This document shows positions 19,376-31,254 of a stretch of 37,260 nt of DNA, piece by piece. Made by a program: the position numbers and the translations under genes. This DNA is from a virus, in the UHGV virus genome UHGV-0198360; one strand, 5' to 3'. Below the pieces are notes generated by a model that saw only the letters and a program-made list of their open reading frames with translations, searched no databases and was not told where the DNA came from. The first letter of the stretch is position 1. Each line of letters begins with the position of its first letter.

Positions 19376-19726
19376 TCATTTGAGCCTATCGACCGCTGTC
19401 TTTGCCCTGTGGCAGGGCTTGCAGAGGCTTTCGAGGTTGGACAGGTCATCGGTCCCCCCATTTGCTTTGGCGGTGATGTGGTCCACCGTCTCAGCGGGTG
19501 TATACCTTCCATTTCGCAGGCATTCCTGACAAAGGTGTTTATCTCTGTCGAGAACGATTGGGCGCAGCCTGTCCCACTTGCTGCCATAACCTCGCTGATG
19601 CCTGCTCTGTCCTCGCTGATGCTGCTGCCAGCCTTCGTTAAGGTGCTTGGGACAATAGCCTGAGCGGTCAGTGGTTGTGCCAGGGCAGCCACGCTTGCGG
19701 CATGCTCTCGGTATTAACGCAGGCAT
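19376..19726 (-). CDS. HNH endonuclease, packaging-associated (116 aa from ATG)
   Basis: ORF track; C-terminal HNH motif (VDHITAKANGGTDDLSNLESLCKPCH); start moved to the ATG in a TGATG overlap with upstream stop, SD GGAGG 8 nt upstream. Confidence 0.75.
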   Translation of the reverse strand: MPALIPRACRKRGCPGTTTDRSGYCPKHLNEGWQQHQRGQSRHQRGYGSKWDRLRPIVLDRDKHLCQECLRNGRYTPAETVDHITAKANGGTDDLSNLESLCKPCHRAKTAVDRLK

Positions 19727-20316
19727 CAGGCTAACCTCCACGCCCGGCGGCGTTCTGTTCGTGGAGCTGAGTCAGGGTGACGCTCAACCGGTTCGCCGTC
19801 TGCATGGTCCACCAGCGACCAGCAGGGATAGACGACAACGCCACCATAAGCATCGCCCACGGCATAATCGGCAGGCTTACTGCAGTCCCATTGAGACAGC
19901 ACACGGCTGATGCTTTGAGGCGGTATGCTGTAGCACACGCCATGTATCAGGCGTTGCAGCATAATGAAGTCAGACCTCACCTTATCCGCATTAATCAGGC
20001 GTTCAGCTATCTGCATTTGGTATTGCGGTGGCCGCCCAGTGCCCAGATAAAAACTAAGCATGTCGCCAGGGAAACGAGCCAGCCAGCCCGTAATCTTGTC
20101 TCTGAATCCACGTACAGGCAGCGCGTCGTCTTCCAGCACCACTACCCGGCAAGGTTGCTCAGCAGCCCATTCGATAGCGCGCCGGTGATTCCAGTTCGCA
20201 CCGTGATTCCCTTCATCGATAAGCAGGTGTGCGCCAAGTTCGCCAGCCAGCAATGCAGCTGAGGCATAGCGGGAATGGTGACCAATCACAACATACTTCA
20301 CTTGTGTTTCCACCAT
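19726..20316 (-). CDS. Hypothetical protein, possible small glycosyltransferase-like enzyme (196 aa)
   Basis: ORF track; strong SD AAAGGAGA; beta-strand then acidic VVVLEDD motif reminiscent of DxD glycosyltransferases; assignment tentative. Confidence 0.4.
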   Translation of the reverse strand: MVETQVKYVVIGHHSRYASAALLAGELGAHLLIDEGNHGANWNHRRAIEWAAEQPCRVVVLEDDALPVRGFRDKITGWLARFPGDMLSFYLGTGRPPQYQMQIAERLINADKVRSDFIMLQRLIHGVCYSIPPQSISRVLSQWDCSKPADYAVGDAYGGVVVYPCWSLVDHADGEPVERHPDSAPRTERRRAWRLA

Positions 20317-21755
20317 GCGGTCTCCTTTCCGAAGCCATCCGTTTTAAAGATGGTATGCACCAGAGGGCCGGTAACGATTCGATTACCGAATGACTTTGCA
20401 GCCATCCCGAAAGCGCCCATGTCCACCAGCGTGGCGGGAGCTGCTTCCATCTTCCAGAAGCGGTGGCTTTCAATAAGGTAATGCTGACGGATGATCCGGT
20501 GGGCGAACTCCATTACATCTTCACGGTAGCCACCAATCAGGCCAGCATTAAGCAGTTGCTCATCCCGGTGCAGTTCGAAGAACTCGCTATAAGCTTTGCC
20601 GTGGTGATTGTCCTTCATCCATTCGTCAAAGTAGGTTTTGTGCTCGGAGCCAACGTAAATTTTACCCGGCGCCATCTCTGCCCAAGGCTCACGCAGCATT
20701 TCAACGTCTGTCCCGTCAGTACACCAGACAAGATGGTATTCAGGGTGGGCACGAAGATACTGATAGATGTGAAGCCAGCGAGCAAAGTATGGGCTCATGC
20801 CCAACGGCGGGACTTCAAACAGACCGGCGCCAGTTGGCGACTCTTTTAATTCGTCAGCCAGGACAATCGGCAGCGCGCCGGATATTGAATCTGCCCAAGC
20901 CTGAAGAGCCTGCGGGTCGGGTTTCATCTTCCTGCCTCGCTGTGGGTCTGGCTGGCTTGTGAGCAGCGTCGTAATCACTAGATTTGGATTTCTGCTGTAC
21001 GAGGCAAAGCCTGTATAACCGCTGTCGCGTCGAGCGTTGAAGATGCCAACGTTTCTTTTTACCAGTGCCTCTCGGTCAGGCCGTGGTATTGAGCGCACGC
21101 CCTCTTCGTACTCGTCCATTGAGTGAATCAGCTTTTCAGAGCCAACTACATCAGCGAACGCCCACGACGTTAAACCAGCGTTGTGAATCCGAAGCGCCAG
21201 ATCGGGATGCTCGTACATGCCGCGACCGTATACCGGATCGAATCCGCCAACCTTCTTGATGGCGCTGCGGTGGTAGTAAAGCATCACCCCGCGCTGACCA
21301 GTGTAAGCAACATGCTTATCATCACGGTACAGCTCCGCCATGTCGTTCAGCTTATTGCGACCAGCCAGATCCAGAAACTGGTAAGCCAGGTGCGGCTCTG
21401 GTGATTCGATGTAGGGAAGATGCCAGTTATCGGCGATGGGCCAGGCATCATCATCCCATAAAAACAGATGCTCGCACCCGACATCCATCAGGGCTGACAG
21501 GCTGGCGTTCTTCGAGGCAACAATGCCGAGTGATGTTTCATGGCGAAGCAGTTGCACGCCGTCGGGTGCTATCGCTGCAGGTTTTGAACCATCATCGACA
21601 ACCACCAGCAGCGCACCGGCTGGCAGATGCTTCTGGTGCTGCTCAACAGCACGCTTTAAAACGTCCGCCCGGTTGTGGGTGGTAATCGCAATGCCAATCC
21701 GTGACGCTGAAGCACAGGCAGGCAAATACGGGACACCATCAATAGTGACCTGCAT
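20298..21755 (-). CDS. Glycosyltransferase family 2-like protein with extra C-terminal domain (485 aa)
   Basis: ORF track; N-terminal GT-A-like motifs (GIAITTHNRADVL, VVVDDGS, LWDDDAW); SD GGAGA before ATG. Confidence 0.55.
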   Translation of the reverse strand: MQVTIDGVPYLPACASASRIGIAITTHNRADVLKRAVEQHQKHLPAGALLVVVDDGSKPAAIAPDGVQLLRHETSLGIVASKNASLSALMDVGCEHLFLWDDDAWPIADNWHLPYIESPEPHLAYQFLDLAGRNKLNDMAELYRDDKHVAYTGQRGVMLYYHRSAIKKVGGFDPVYGRGMYEHPDLALRIHNAGLTSWAFADVVGSEKLIHSMDEYEEGVRSIPRPDREALVKRNVGIFNARRDSGYTGFASYSRNPNLVITTLLTSQPDPQRGRKMKPDPQALQAWADSISGALPIVLADELKESPTGAGLFEVPPLGMSPYFARWLHIYQYLRAHPEYHLVWCTDGTDVEMLREPWAEMAPGKIYVGSEHKTYFDEWMKDNHHGKAYSEFFELHRDEQLLNAGLIGGYREDVMEFAHRIIRQHYLIESHRFWKMEAAPATLVDMGAFGMAAKSFGNRIVTGPLVHTIFKTDGFGKETAWWKHK

Positions 21756-26875: not shown

Positions 26876-27262
26876 TCAGGCGGCTGCACCCGCCGGTTCA
26901 TATCTGCTGATCGTTATCTCTACCCGACCTTTCGGCACTACGGGTCCCCATTCCACCAGCATGCGCTTAATCTGGCTGTCGTCTTCCCAGACACCCGCAT
27001 GCGTCAGCGCGTCAAACAGGGCTTTGTTGTAATTATCGATATCCCGGCGGCGCGCATCCGGCGGGTACAGAGTGATTTCTACCGCTGCCAGTTCAGTCGA
27101 TGGCTTCGGGAGACGTCGTAATTGCTCAATGATCGCCACGCAGGCAGCGCTCTGGTATTTACGACCATCAGCGCTAATGAGGTGACGACCGGCCAGCGGC
27201 CCCTTATTAGGGGCGCGCCAGTACGTGTTCACGCTCGGAGGGAACGGGAGCACAAGTTTCAT
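26876..27262 (-). CDS. rusA: Holliday junction resolvase RusA (128 aa)
   Basis: ORF trimmed to ATG (SD AGGAGGTGGC, ATGA overlap with methyltransferase stop); MKLVLPFPPSVNTYW and Asp-rich catalytic region typical of RusA. Confidence 0.8.
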   Translation of the reverse strand: MKLVLPFPPSVNTYWRAPNKGPLAGRHLISADGRKYQSAACVAIIEQLRRLPKPSTELAAVEITLYPPDARRRDIDNYNKALFDALTHAGVWEDDSQIKRMLVEWGPVVPKGRVEITISRYEPAGAAA

Positions 27263-29076
27263 GCCACCTCCTGCTGTTGCACTGCACACAGTTCCGGAAG
27301 ATTTGCCTCCACCAGCGCCCTGGCGAATGGTGGTGGTACCGCATTACCGCAGCGGGCTACCTGCTTATCTTTTGCATAGAGATTTCCACGGTAGTCCTGA
27401 TCAATAACGTAACCATCCGGGAAGCCCTGCGCTTTGTAGAGTTCATGCGGCTGCAACATGCGCATTCCGATATCAACGATCTGGTATTTAACCCCATCGA
27501 TCGTTACCAGCCATTCATCGTCACTTTCCCCGCAATACGTCTCGAGAAATGTGCGTACCTCACCCACGTGTTGGCCACCAGCGGTGATTGTTGGCATTGG
27601 CACATCAAGGCGTTGCCCGTCGCGGCATGTTCCACGCAGTTTCACCAGATGAGAGGCAACTACCGCATGATGGTCGACAGTGGTCACTGAATGCGCGGGT
27701 TCATCCATACTGACACCCGGCCCCGTATAGTTACCGCCGTAGTGTTTCGCCAGGAACGCGCCCACCAATTGTGATTTACCGCCACCACCAGCTGTAATTG
27801 TGGCGCTCGGTTCGTCTGCCCGGTGGCCGACGCTGGCCCCAAACTGGCGGGCTATCACTGGCGCAACAAGACAGGCGCGGGATTGCTTCAGAATGGTATG
27901 AGCAGGTTTATCCAGCGGGCGCGGTTTAGCCTGGTATTCACTACCACCATTACCCGCCAGAAATGGTGTTAGTGCAGCCTCAACAATCCCGAGAGCATGC
28001 CCATTCCCACCCGGACGTTTTGATGTGCCAGCGGTTACCGTCGGGACAGGTTCGGTAACGGGCTGCCCGGTTGCGCCAGTGCGGAATTTTGTCAGATGTG
28101 GAACAGCTAACGCGTAACCGTGGGTTTTAGTAATAGTTTGCAAAGGCTCGTCCAGCTTCTGACCGCGGAAACAGTCGTAACTCGTTTTGGTGCTGGTGTG
28201 ATTGCACTTCACGATAAACGGCGACGCACTTTCGATAACAAAGCGCTGTATGCCGCGCGCGATCCGCTTCAGAGTGTTCTCCGCCAGCGGTTTTTTGCGG
28301 TCGAAGATGGACAGGGCCGGAACATTCCAGTCGATACATTCCGCAGCGGTACGCCATGGCATCAGCCTGCCACTTTGCACCTCCAGCGACTTAGGATCCC
28401 CATGGCTAACAGCAGGCCACTGGATTGGGCAACCATCGCAACGCATAACCATGAAGAAGCGTTTGCGGATCGTCGGCGCGCCGTAATCACACGCGCGTAG
28501 TTCGCGATAATCAACATCATATCCGAGCCCATCCACCAGCTTTTGCGCCTGCTCGCTACCTCTTTCGATAGACAGAAACTCACAAACCTCAGCCAGTGCC
28601 GGGTGATCAGCAGGAATGCCAGTGGACAGCATGCCGACAAATGCATTGAATGTTTCGCCAGTGCGGGCAGGATCCGGACGCATTTCATCGGCCAGCAGCG
28701 GTCCCCACGTTTTGAACTCTTCCACGTTCTCCAGCATCATCACGCGCGGTCGCTTTGCCAGTGCCCAACGCAGAACAATCCAGGCCAGACCGCGTATCTC
28801 TTTTTTCACTGGCTTTGCGCCTTTTGCCTTCGAGAAGTGTCGGCAGTCCGGGCTAAACCATGCCAGGCCGACAGGATTACCGCCGGTGGCAGCTACCGGA
28901 TCCACGTCAAAAACGGATTCACAATAATGCAGTGTGTCCGGGTGGTTCGTCTTGTGCATCGCAATGGCGTTTTCGTCGTGGTTGATCGCAATATCCACGC
29001 TGCGCCCGATCGCCAGTTCAATACCCGTTGATGCGCCACCGCCACCAGCAAAGTTATCAACAATAATCTCACGCAT
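27259..29076 (-). CDS. DNA cytosine-5 methyltransferase (605 aa)
   Basis: ORF track; motif I DNFAGGGG, PC motif region SPDCRHFS, ENV motif MLENVEEF. Confidence 0.8.
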   Translation of the reverse strand: MREIIVDNFAGGGGASTGIELAIGRSVDIAINHDENAIAMHKTNHPDTLHYCESVFDVDPVAATGGNPVGLAWFSPDCRHFSKAKGAKPVKKEIRGLAWIVLRWALAKRPRVMMLENVEEFKTWGPLLADEMRPDPARTGETFNAFVGMLSTGIPADHPALAEVCEFLSIERGSEQAQKLVDGLGYDVDYRELRACDYGAPTIRKRFFMVMRCDGCPIQWPAVSHGDPKSLEVQSGRLMPWRTAAECIDWNVPALSIFDRKKPLAENTLKRIARGIQRFVIESASPFIVKCNHTSTKTSYDCFRGQKLDEPLQTITKTHGYALAVPHLTKFRTGATGQPVTEPVPTVTAGTSKRPGGNGHALGIVEAALTPFLAGNGGSEYQAKPRPLDKPAHTILKQSRACLVAPVIARQFGASVGHRADEPSATITAGGGGKSQLVGAFLAKHYGGNYTGPGVSMDEPAHSVTTVDHHAVVASHLVKLRGTCRDGQRLDVPMPTITAGGQHVGEVRTFLETYCGESDDEWLVTIDGVKYQIVDIGMRMLQPHELYKAQGFPDGYVIDQDYRGNLYAKDKQVARCGNAVPPPFARALVEANLPELCAVQQQEVA

Positions 29077-30391
29077 GGGTTACCCCCTGCATGCTGCCGA
29101 CAAGACCACGCGCAATTGTGATGATTTCGCTGGTGGCCGTTCGTTCCAGCCAGAGTTGATTGATGTTGGCTTTCAGCTTGTTCTGCTGTGATTCATCCAG
29201 CATGTCAGCGCCGTCTACCTGGTCGAATACAATTCCAACCTCCAGCGGCCAGATACGGGACTCGGGAAGCGGATCCGATACTGGTTTAGCTTTCTCACGG
29301 ATGTGCATGCGGATCTGGCGAATATTGGACCAACTGGAAACATCCAGGCTTCCCATAGCTGCAATGAAATCAGTACTGTTCATGCCATATTCACCAGATG
29401 CTTCGAGGGCAACAGTACGAATACGTTCCGACATATCCAGGCGCGCAGCAGCGTCATCGAATTCAATCGACAACAGCCACTCATCCACACCGAACAAAAT
29501 ACTCTCACGAATAAGCAGCTTCGCTTTGTCGATCGTTAATGGTGATACCTGAGTGAATTCCGGTGCTTCGACAGAATCCGCCGCCCAGGTATGCCCAAAC
29601 TTCGATTCACTGAATGTGTATTCTTCTTTATCGCCGAACGCAGCTCTAACGCATGCCCACGCCTCGACACCGCTGATATCAAAAATATCTTTCTGGGTAA
29701 GTGGCAACTCTGCTTCTGGCTTGTCAGCTACAGATGGTATGGCAGTTGCAGGTTGAGACTTGCTGGCAGCAAATTGCGCCAAAGTCATAAACGCCCGCCC
29801 TTTTGCCTCCAGTTCAGTACGGTTGATATAGCTGAACCGCTCACCACGCCATGAGTTATCGAATACAGCTATGGCACCGGCAAAAAACGCGCTGGTGGGC
29901 TTCTGTTTTTCGTCAGCAGGTACAAACCACACTGGCAGATCGAACCCAATGCGCCCGCGAATGAATACAATGTGATCGGCATCTTCCGGCCACCACGTTT
30001 CACTTGGCGCGGCTTTTATCAGGAATACATAGCGACCGCCCTTCTCGCGCTGGGCTGCTGCGTACTTCATGATGTGCGTCATACCAGTGATCGCCTGTTT
30101 CTCGTGGTACTGCGAACGGCTATACGGTGGGTTGCCATAACCTGCACCACCCAGTTCTGCCAGACGTTCAGACCAGTCCTGGGTCAGCGCGTTATCTTCG
30201 GCGGTGTACCATGCCGGGCATTTCGCGTTGTCGTCGTCAGCAAACAAGTCCAGAACTAATGGGCCAAATAACGCGTTGATCCCCCAGAAAAGCAGATCAG
30301 GTGTCCTCCACTGATCTCCAACTTCTTTCAATTCGTGAGCTGGTTTACTGCGCAGTTCTGCCAGCGCCTGGCAATATTTATTTGGCATCAT
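29069..30391 (-). CDS. Phage Dam-like N6-adenine methyltransferase domain fused to a ~250-aa domain of unknown function (440 aa)
   Basis: ORF track; NPPY motif (GYGNPPYSRS) in N-terminal third; C-terminal part unrecognised; ATGA overlap with upstream replication gene. Confidence 0.6.
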   Translation of the reverse strand: MMPNKYCQALAELRSKPAHELKEVGDQWRTPDLLFWGINALFGPLVLDLFADDDNAKCPAWYTAEDNALTQDWSERLAELGGAGYGNPPYSRSQYHEKQAITGMTHIMKYAAAQREKGGRYVFLIKAAPSETWWPEDADHIVFIRGRIGFDLPVWFVPADEKQKPTSAFFAGAIAVFDNSWRGERFSYINRTELEAKGRAFMTLAQFAASKSQPATAIPSVADKPEAELPLTQKDIFDISGVEAWACVRAAFGDKEEYTFSESKFGHTWAADSVEAPEFTQVSPLTIDKAKLLIRESILFGVDEWLLSIEFDDAAARLDMSERIRTVALEASGEYGMNSTDFIAAMGSLDVSSWSNIRQIRMHIREKAKPVSDPLPESRIWPLEVGIVFDQVDGADMLDESQQNKLKANINQLWLERTATSEIITIARGLVGSMQGVTHA

Positions 30392-31254
30392 GAGCGGAAC
30401 CCCGAATTTTCTGGCAGTGAATAGTCAACATTTTGGAAGTTGGCGCGGCTGGCTGAGTTAGTCGCCCATTTACCGTTAACGCGTTCAGGTCGCCCAGCGG
30501 CAGACCATTTGGTCGCGCTTTGCAGGTAACCGGGGAAGTTTTTTGGAATAAACAGAGTTGCCGGGCGGAGGTATTGAGCCTGCTCGCTATCACGCCAATC
30601 AGCGTTTTTGTAATCCACCACAAGGCACAGATCATCAACAGTGAACTGTTCCCGCAGACGGGCGCGAATGTTCTCCAGCGACGTGCTGCATACCTGGTAG
30701 CGTGAACCAGTTGTCTGGTTCAGGTAAGACAAAACCTGTCTGGCCTGATCAGTAATCACAACCTCAGGGTCGGGTTGCGCCGCAACCGGACAAGAGGGTT
30801 TTGAAGTTACTTGTGGATCTTGTTTTGATTTTACTGACGGATCCCCGCCAGATTCTGACGGGTCAAAACCGCCTTTTTTGCCAGATTTCGACGGGTCAGT
30901 TTTTGAGGCGTCAAAATTTGATGCGTCAGATTTTGACGTGTCAGAATCTGACAGTTGAGAAAATGCGGCAGCCTGAAGTTTCGCCACATTCAGGCGGTAC
31001 ACGTTCGAAGCATTACGGTTACCATTACGGCGCTGTGTACGCGTGAGCCAGCCATCTTTTTCAAGCTTTGCGATTGCCGTTCTGATAGTGCTCGGCCCTG
31101 CGCCAAGCTGGCGAGCAATAGTTTCAATGGACGGCCAGCACACACCCTCATCGCTGCTGAAATCAGCGAGACGGGCCATGATCGCGACACTAGACAACTT
31201 CATGCCCGACGCCGCGCAACCATCCCATACGTAGCCGGTTAATTTAGTGCTCAT
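30388..31254 (-). CDS. Replication initiator (lambda O-like; N-terminal HTH, C-terminal conserved phage domain) (288 aa)
   Basis: ORF track; SD GGGAGAT; N-terminal winged-HTH-like region; internal iteron array encodes a low-complexity linker (SDSDTSKSDASNFDASKTDPSKS). Confidence 0.7.
   Translation of the reverse strand: MSTKLTGYVWDGCAASGMKLSSVAIMARLADFSSDEGVCWPSIETIARQLGAGPSTIRTAIAKLEKDGWLTRTQRRNGNRNASNVYRLNVAKLQAAAFSQLSDSDTSKSDASNFDASKTDPSKSGKKGGFDPSESGGDPSVKSKQDPQVTSKPSCPVAAQPDPEVVITDQARQVLSYLNQTTGSRYQVCSTSLENIRARLREQFTVDDLCLVVDYKNADWRDSEQAQYLRPATLFIPKNFPGYLQSATKWSAAGRPERVNGKWATNSASRANFQNVDYSLPENSGFRS
30826..30953. repeat. Iteron-like repeat array (candidate origin of replication) inside the initiator gene
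   Basis: Copies of the ~12-bp motif GATTYYGACGKG at 30851, 30883 and 30928, plus palindromic TCAGAATCTGA and TCAAAATTTGA elements. Confidence 0.55.

Follow-up and report, generated by a model that had tools for sequence, protein, structure and literature searches.

A prophage Dam-type methylase with a modular helical tail, one module of which accompanies a long C5 cytosine methylase and may be its partner

Does the long C-terminal tail of a phage Dam-type methylase serve replication, or does it belong to the machinery of DNA modification? The question is raised by the UHGV virus genome UHGV-0198360, analyzed here as a stretch of 37,260 nucleotides (nt; hereafter the window), which is a lambdoid prophage. 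Directly downstream of its replication initiator, in the position that the helicase loader occupies in lambda, lies a gene for a protein of 440 amino acids (aa) that is Dam-like only in its N-terminal part; it is followed by a gene for a 605-aa C5-cytosine DNA methyltransferase and then by the gene for RusA. The initial annotation, made from the sequence alone, had drawn attention to this position and thereby implied that the tail might stand in for a missing loader. Our analysis points in another direction: the locus is probably, in our guarded estimate, a DNA-modification cassette inserted in the early-right replication/nin operon, in which the last module of the tail, here termed T, would act as an accessory partner of the C5 methylase, the tail as such not being a replication protein. 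The features on which this rests are as follows.

29069..30391, minus strand: fusion protein of 440 aa, a Dam-type N6-adenine methyltransferase followed by a linker and modules M1, M2 and T
29777..30391, minus strand: Dam-type catalytic domain, aa 1-205 (PF05869, TIGR01712, NPPY)
29708..29776, minus strand: low-complexity, length-variable linker, aa 206-228 (alignment; predicted local distance difference test score, pLDDT, below 50)
29543..29707, minus strand: module M1, aa 229-283, motif ...WAC..AAFG.K.EYTFSESKF.HTWAADS... (alignments; pLDDT about 90)
29276..29542, minus strand: module M2, aa 284-372, a helical bundle packed on M1 (pLDDT 89-94)
29072..29266, minus strand: module T, aa 376-440, three helices (alignment; pLDDT 86-89)
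27259..29076, minus strand: C5 cytosine DNA methyltransferase, 605 aa, between T and RusA (PF00145, full motif set)

The initial annotation was right about the layout: both methylase open reading frames (ORFs), at 29069-30391 and 27259-29076 on the minus strand, lie adjacent to each other between the initiator and RusA. Its remark that no restriction endonuclease partner is visible also holds, for no ORF of the early/nin region of the window has a Pfam match to one. The neighbors of the methylases are the O-like initiator and RusA, then Ant, DUF968 and Q, none of them a cognate restriction endonuclease, and none accompanies the methylases in any of the related loci inspected either. The leftward early operon extends past the end of the window (37260), and the absences reported here hold for its visible part. 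Successive genes overlap throughout: the stop of the initiator gene and the start of the Dam-fusion share an ATGA (30388-30391), the stop of the Dam-fusion and the start of the C5 gene share 8 nt in different frames (ATGCGTGA, 29069-29076), and the stop of the C5 gene and the start of RusA again share an ATGA (27259-27262). From the O-like initiator through the Dam-fusion and the C5 methylase to RusA, translation of the four genes is coupled. The description of the two methylases as lying back to back is accurate as to their adjacency, but comparison with other prophages qualifies it, in that the C5 gene reads as an optional cassette. In the prophages of E. coli Nissle 1917 and E. coli 1943, copies of the Dam-fusion gene 95-97% identical to that of the window are followed directly by RusA, and it is the absence of the C5 gene from prophages otherwise so similar that marks it as optional. 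The nucleotide homology to the Nissle-type prophage ends within the last T helix, about 49 nt short of the fusion-gene stop (29069-29117), and resumes at RusA, with the 3' end of T and the start of RusA as the apparent borders of the cassette. The order Dam-then-C5 is shared with Citrobacter phage phiNP and Escherichia phage Flotzy.

The N-terminal part of the fusion is an ordinary member of a known family. It matches PF05869 over aa 19-199 (E 5.5e-43; 147 bits against a cutoff of 28.1; profile positions 3-167 of 169) and TIGR01712, 'phage_N6A_met', over aa 16-197 (205.9 bits, cutoff 97.05), and its motif IV, GNPPYS, with NPPY from residue 87, is kept in every aligned homologue whose sequence spans the catalytic domain. 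The exact 440-aa sequence is public as 'phage N-6-adenine-methyltransferase' from Salmonella enterica and an uncultured Citrobacter, and near-identical members of its cluster come from other Citrobacter and E. coli. As the initial annotation had perceived, the Dam-like part ends there and the rest goes unrecognized: on its own, the tail (aa 202-440) has no match to any Pfam family at E<=10, the full-length 440-aa protein matched only TIGR01712 in NCBIfam, with the tail left uncovered, a profile search of PDB sequences that started from the tail alignment produced chance matches only, and PADLOC gave methylase profiles only. M1, M2 and T likewise have no match in Pfam, the PDB or BFVD (viral structures) and are not described in the literature searched. 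The full-length AlphaFold model is poor over the Dam domain (mean pLDDT 63) and was excluded from fold searches, while aa 226-440 were modeled confidently (mean pLDDT 86.6), M1 and M2 forming one helical domain that is separated by a disordered hinge from T, a three-helix unit. The structure prediction and domain search that had been proposed for the C-terminal part thus resolve it into three helical modules and find in it no known target-recognition domain (TRD) of Dam enzymes. All three are acidic (isoelectric point, pI, 4.3-5.0; that of M1 4.3), and T carries the motif WP.EV..VF.Q......L....Q..LK..IN..WLE......II..A. In pairwise comparisons with seven homologues, the ratio of nonsynonymous to synonymous substitution rates (dN/dS) is 0.04-0.09 for the Dam domain, 0.04-0.13 for M1, 0.03-0.19 for M2, 0.08-0.24 for T and 0.25-0.97 for the linker; by this measure M1, M2 and T are real protein modules under purifying selection and the linker is under relaxed selection.

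The modules do not form a fixed block. On the Dam domain they occur in the following architectures.

Dam+T, 293 aa: phiNP, ST64B (sb44) and many Citrobacter
Dam+M1, about 325 aa: metagenomic (ENA/Logan) contigs (P0166, P0168 and P0173)
Dam+M1+M2, 397 aa: Atlantibacter
Dam+M1+M2+T, 440 aa: the window, Nissle and Flotzy

The Dam+T protein of phiNP is 80% identical to that of the window over the Dam domain and 67% identical over its last ~65 residues. In a different lineage Dam stands alone (194 aa), and the gene after it, which overlaps it by 4 nt, encodes a 344-aa protein with M1 at its start (P0163). M1 and M2 together also form the C-terminus of ParB-like proteins (P0124, P0127 and P0135, one of which is gp48 of Pantoea phage AH07). 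T, in turn, is fused to an MT-A70 methylase and to a small methylase with the signature 'DMCCGSRMFW...FDPPH', each directly upstream of a C5 gene, and it also occurs by itself: a search with a T profile recovered 1,349 proteins, and among the 120 matches listed most are stand-alone 'hypothetical proteins' of 85 aa, which comprise T and one extra N-terminal helix. Sequence comparison accordingly presents the tail as three independently shuffled helical modules. Since HMMER, run exhaustively over 1.84 billion representative proteins, returned only 43 related clusters, these modules are narrow and lineage-restricted; the multi-repeat proteins P0148 and P0153 among the 43 were judged spurious, repeat-driven members.

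What T follows from one phage to the next is the C5 methylase. In every locus first inspected, the stand-alone form shares 4 nt with the start of a C5 gene whose product, of 620-655 aa, belongs to the same family as that of the window. Across 53 loci, counted with one genome per species, the stop of T abuts or overlaps the start of a C5 homologue (at -8, -4 or +2 nt) in 47. Broken down by what precedes the C5 gene, the counts are as follows.

No PF05869 Dam upstream (T stand-alone, or on an MT-A70 or DPPH methylase): C5 adjacent in 32 of 34 loci
Dam+T: C5 adjacent in 13 of 15 loci
Dam+M1+M2+T: C5 adjacent in 2 of 4 loci

The association is stronger still when approached from the C5 side. T ends at the C5 start in all 78 evaluable IMG/VR contigs that carry a C5 homologue of at least 76% identity (34 with Dam+T, 26 with Dam+M1+M2+T and 18 with other arrangements), and all seven sequenced phages with a C5 homologue of about 75% identity or more carry T. 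Conversely, the fusion variants that lack T have no C5 gene downstream. A C5 gene of this kind is therefore never seen without T, T being sometimes seen without C5, an asymmetry that speaks for a dependence of this clade's C5 enzyme on T.

The C5 methylase is, like the Dam domain, a member of a known family, and orphan phage methylases are themselves nothing new; what is new here, on present comparisons, are the three tail modules and the regular pairing of T with this C5 clade. The exact sequence of the enzyme is WP_161668384.1 of Citrobacter werkmanii. It matches PF00145 with 73.1 bits (cutoff 22) in three stretches split by a long variable region and scores 54 with the narrower TIGR00675 'dcm', below its cutoff of 100.65. 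Its motifs stand in canonical order: I, FAGGGG, at aa 9; IV, PDC, at 76; VI, ENV, at 116; VIII, RKR, at 204; IX, QGFP, at 550; and X, GNAV, at 577. Between motifs VIII and IX lies its most unusual feature.

27442..28434, minus strand: expanded variable (target-recognition) region of the C5 methylase, about 330-340 aa (343 aa when counted from motif VIII to motif IX)

Classical monospecific C5 enzymes have ~85 aa between these motifs. The region in the window is thus expanded 4-5-fold and holds six copies of P-x-x-[ST]-[IV]-T at a spacing of 32-48 aa, and in the homologues it measures 209-430 aa with 2-7 copies of the motif. By analogy this suggests several target-recognition units and a broad or multiple specificity; if the region does encode several specificities, the enzyme would be a potentially useful broad-spectrum tool for 5-methylcytosine (5mC). 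Two natural variants of the region were also seen, viz., a 473-aa C5 methylase of Kluyvera cryocrescens (L058), a deletion variant with only two of the variable-region motifs, and a 405-aa chimera (P0015) in which Dam-M1-M2 is joined directly to the C-terminus of a C5 methylase; such deletion variants could serve as natural experiments on the variable region.

Several observations weigh against the view that T is a dedicated partner of a multispecific C5 enzyme. T occurs without a C5 gene in 6 of the 53 loci and likewise in the Nissle, E. coli 1943 and ST64B prophages, and its persistence there implies that it has a second role or is a recent remnant. In more distant members of the C5 family, from phages of Aeromonas, Vibrio and Pseudomonas, T is not detectable, so that the fold does not require T in every case. 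Linkage this tight could also stem from the 3' end of T doing no more than holding the translation-initiation region of the C5 gene. As for the specificity of the enzyme, a self-BLAST of the variable region found no significant internal similarity among the six motif units, and multiple TRDs are a working hypothesis for this region rather than a demonstrated property. A further case cuts both ways. In Pectobacterium phage ZF40 (gp20-gp21; locus L073, 2279-4905), a small DPPH methylase without T precedes a C5 methylase that has a 70-residue N-terminal extension, and this extension aligns in register with T (hhalign E 8e-5, with 60% probability, and 2e-4), which is suggestive of a T-like segment fused to the N-terminus of the C5 enzyme itself. 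The match is weak, however: HMMER gives E 0.16-1.9, the profile could be built from only two available sequences and reaches 47% probability, and the last search for homologues added a single relative. In a ZF40-related metagenomic ORF, P0267, the T-like segment is out of frame with the methylase, and a frameshift or a fusion polymorphism is possible.

With these points in view, we propose the following course of events for a lambdoid prophage of the Citrobacter/Salmonella/E. coli type. Upon induction, the initiator, the Dam-fusion, the C5 methylase and RusA would be expressed as a coupled unit. The Dam domain would add N6-methyladenine, GATC being the target expected from characterized members of the family, and the C5 enzyme would add 5mC, probably at several motifs. 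T, we infer, binds the C5 enzyme in a non-catalytic capacity and may be needed for its activity, stability or targeting. It would be supplied either by a free-standing 85-aa ORF that is coupled to the C5 gene or as an extension of whichever amino-methylase precedes that gene (PF05869 Dam, MT-A70 or DPPH); where it forms the C-terminus of an adenine methylase, as in the window, adenine and cytosine methylases might be tethered into one complex. Both orphan methylases would then methylate the replicating phage DNA and, as known phage orphan methylases lead one to expect, allow the progeny to resist restriction in the next host. M1-M2 may be a second accessory module of DNA-modifying proteins: its acidity makes it probably a protein-protein interaction module, and, since it also sits on a ParB-like protein next to a DpdA-type enzyme, it may serve the DNA-modifying machinery of this phage group more generally. 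Of this course of events, the analysis shows the anatomy, the modularity, the selection, the gene linkage and the lack of a loader signal; the binding of T, the sites methylated and the gain against restriction are inferred.

The competing possibility that the locus first brings to mind, i.e., that the ~240 residues of the tail are a helicase loader or recruiting domain replacing lambda P in an initiator-only module, draws on genuine observations, since the gene does occupy the loader position and, as the initial annotation reported, the visible early/nin region of the window holds no ORF with a Pfam match to lambda P, DnaC/IstB or DnaB. The tail did not turn out to be a known TRD of Dam enzymes and no canonical loader surfaced elsewhere in the visible module, the two outcomes by which the annotation had expected its suggestion to fall; it founders on other grounds. 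No module is constant across phages whose initiator is of this type: phiNP and ST64B are without M1-M2 and the Atlantibacter prophages without T, all of these having initiator-led modules, and SfIV has no Dam gene at this position at all, its initiator (HTH_36) being followed only by a PerC-like protein (Phg_2220_C was not detected in the initiators of SfIV or ST64B). T is present in phages that already possess a loader, those with stand-alone T and C5 having Phage_lambda_P or IstB/DnaC loaders beside their initiators; it tracks the C5 methylase and not the initiator, and the modules, acidic as they are, track DNA-modification genes. Neither sequence nor fold offers any similarity to lambda P, DnaC/DnaI or DciA: aa 202-440 belong to none of the profiles of lambda P (PF06992), DnaC/IstB (PF01695) or DciA (Pfam at E<=10; PDB profile search), and fold comparison of the confidently modeled tail (AlphaFold) matched no loader structure. 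Moreover, replication modules without O/P-type pairs are in any case common in lambdoid and Stx phages (PMC8951638). We therefore regard a loader function as very improbable, and a tempting but wrong lead for initiator-only lambdoid replicons is thereby removed.

The remaining alternatives keep the tail within DNA modification or its control. T might be a controller-type regulator that times C5 expression, or an upstream ORF that couples C5 translation, instead of a structural partner; the invariance of the stop/start overlap (-8, -4 or +2 nt), the position of the C5 cassette boundary inside the 3' end of T, the size of stand-alone T, which is comparable to that of restriction-modification controller proteins, and its extra N-terminal helix, which could dimerize, would all accord with this. 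Yet T has no match to a helix-turn-helix (HTH) family, a domain that ends three different enzymes would be an odd form for a transcription factor, and coupling alone would not hold 65 residues at a dN/dS of ~0.1 across 37-86% identity, so that we grant this explanation a small chance. It is somewhat less credible, and on balance unlikely, that the tail is a DNA-binding or target-recognition extension of a minimal Dam, altering its specificity or processivity and unrelated to C5. PF05869 enzymes, at only about 165-195 aa when stand-alone (the profile has 169 positions and the separate Dam 194 aa), do lack a separate TRD, M1 is fused to Dam or encoded in the next, coupled gene, and T has a basic helix (HHQRRLKHHINR in the stand-alone forms); against this, all three modules have a pI of only 4.3-5.0 and match no known TRD or DNA-binding fold, M1-M2 is also found on a ParB-like protein and T on unrelated methylases or alone, and the presence of T predicts the C5 gene and not Dam. 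Finally, M1-M2 and/or T could be counter-defense domains, e.g., inhibitors of the methylation-dependent restriction systems McrBC and Mrr. This would explain their travel with methylases, heavy C5 methylation making the phage DNA a target, and it would suit modules that are acidic, small, helical, lineage-restricted and always beside DNA-modification genes, with the 43 clusters in 1.84 billion representatives being typical of fast-evolving accessory genes; their net charge is, however, far from that of DNA mimics such as Ocr and Arn, and the PADLOC search yielded methylase profiles alone. We hold such a function to be quite improbable.

The reading of T as an accessory partner of the C5 methylase can be extended to the other modules through AH07. 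There, gp48, the ParB-like protein ending in M1+M2, is followed by a homologue of DpdA-type queuine/archaeosine transglycosylases and then by RusA (locus L007, 4122-6196, gp48-gp49), and the gp48-gp49 pair sits in the same slot as the Dam-fusion. This suggests that gp48-gp49 is a 7-deazaguanine DNA-modification pair that uses M1-M2 as an accessory module. One may go further and picture M1-M2 and T as docking modules that assemble DNA-modifying enzymes (Dam and a multi-target C5 methylase in the window, a ParB/DpdB-like protein and a DpdA-type transglycosylase in AH07) into a complex tethered to the initiator or replisome of a lambdoid, initiator-only module that has no loader, with modification mechanically coupled to replication. 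To this extension we assign only a small likelihood; if true, it would be a bacterial-virus analogue of the replication-fork targeting of eukaryotic maintenance methylases.

Comparison with known systems helps to delimit what is unusual. Phage orphan Dam enzymes of the PF05869/TIGR01712 type are exemplified by those of HP1 and T1 and by the VT2-type Dam. The N-terminal 205 residues in the window are a full-length member of this group, with NPPY, a place in the early region of a temperate phage and no restriction partner, but typical members have 165-195 aa and that of the window adds 235 residues in three modules that the profile libraries do not recognize; in PADLOC and PHROG, the Dam+T form falls under profiles that are labeled simply 'methyltransferase'. 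Among C5 enzymes, the multispecific ones of Bacillus phages, M.SPRI, M.Phi3TI and M.Rho11sI, come closest. They too are orphans with an expanded VIII-IX region and repeated motifs of the T-[LIV] type in varying copy number; they have, however, no detectable sequence relationship to the variable region in the window. The Bacillus enzymes are not known to have an upstream T, in contrast to the enterobacterial clade, where T appears obligate, and for the latter multispecificity is a prediction. The two-polypeptide C5 enzymes M.EcoHK31I alpha/beta and M.AquI, in which the small subunit supplies a missing catalytic motif, offer a working analogy for T in that a small polypeptide encoded beside or overlapping the main gene is needed for activity. 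They differ in that the 605-aa protein possesses all motifs I-X, and T would therefore be a non-catalytic accessory. Dmt of phage P1, a 'bifunctional DNA methyltransferase' in GenBank, resembles the locus in that a temperate enterobacterial phage expresses an N6-adenine and a C5 methylase from one unit, but in Dmt both domains lie on one chain, the C5 domain ahead of a Dam of the D12 class (PF02086), whereas the window has two ORFs. We considered Dmt as a fused version of the gene pair and rejected it, given the other Dam class, the lack of a T-like segment (hhalign E 0.63) and an only remotely related C5 domain. With lambda P and DnaC the likeness is one of gene position alone, directly downstream of the initiator; sequence, profiles and fold show none, and the modules are dispensable among phages of the same initiator type.

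For temperate phages, orphan methylases are among the chief means of evading restriction, and upon induction they also rewrite the methylome of the host; the Dam-fusion gene is carried by E. coli Nissle 1917, a strain used as a probiotic and as a chassis. The rule that every close relative of this long C5 enzyme has T directly upstream points to a two-component cytosine methylase, and possibly to a combined adenine-cytosine methylase complex, hidden under the labels 'phage N-6-adenine-methyltransferase', 'PAPS reductase' and 'hypothetical protein'. The second of these labels deserves comment. The records of the phages ST64B, 118970_sal3, Flotzy and Eeyore call the Dam-fusion 'phosphoadenosine phosphosulfate reductase' (PAPS reductase), a name that apparently spread from PHROG 33262, and the 440-aa protein of the window contains no PAPS-reductase domain. 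Another oddity concerns the 90%-identity cluster of the 440-aa protein, which includes 161-aa 'PerC family' transcriptional regulators without sequence similarity to it, probably a clustering artifact from a fused or mis-called member.

The genes that flank the methylases complete the picture of the operon.

30388..31254, minus strand: O-like replication initiator, 288 aa, with an N-terminal winged HTH and a Phg_2220_C domain
30847..31001, no strand assigned: 5-6 iteron-like 19-nt direct repeats (GYCAGATTYTGACGNGTCA) in the initiator gene (repeat search)
26876..27262, minus strand: RusA Holliday-junction resolvase (Pfam RusA, E 5.5e-16), with an ATG at 27262 after GGAGG

The initiator matches HTH_36 (E 8e-12) and Phg_2220_C (E 1e-25) in Pfam, with a weak DnaD_N match, and bears the PHROG label 'primosomal protein / replication initiation O-like'. 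From its DnaD-like features it seems most likely that this replicon recruits the host DnaB-DnaC via the initiator itself. The iteron-like repeat family in its gene comprises 6 copies of 74-100% identity, with nested inverted repeats, and encodes a repetitive D/S/K-rich linker of the initiator protein. The lambda ori sits inside the O gene, and by analogy the repeats are the probable replication origin of the phage. RusA was listed as an ORF at 26876-27289 with a GTG start at 27289; this start is probably wrong, the ATG at 27262 with its preceding GGAGG being a better fit. Downstream of RusA follow the Ant/Rha antirepressor, a DUF968/HNH protein and Q, in this order. Farther away, in the interval from the lysis genes to the terminase (19726-21755), the window has two minus-strand ORFs of 485 aa and 196 aa with no Pfam match. 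In related phages, the surroundings of T and C5 have a character of their own: the nin region of Citrobacter-type loci with stand-alone T and C5 (L009-L012, 8409-9036) often has a D12-class Dam, DUF551, a homologue of DNA polymerase III theta and DinI, and in the Salmonella loci L013-L015 a RecA homologue lies downstream of the C5 gene. These T+C5 nin regions look like small islands of DNA-metabolism morons.

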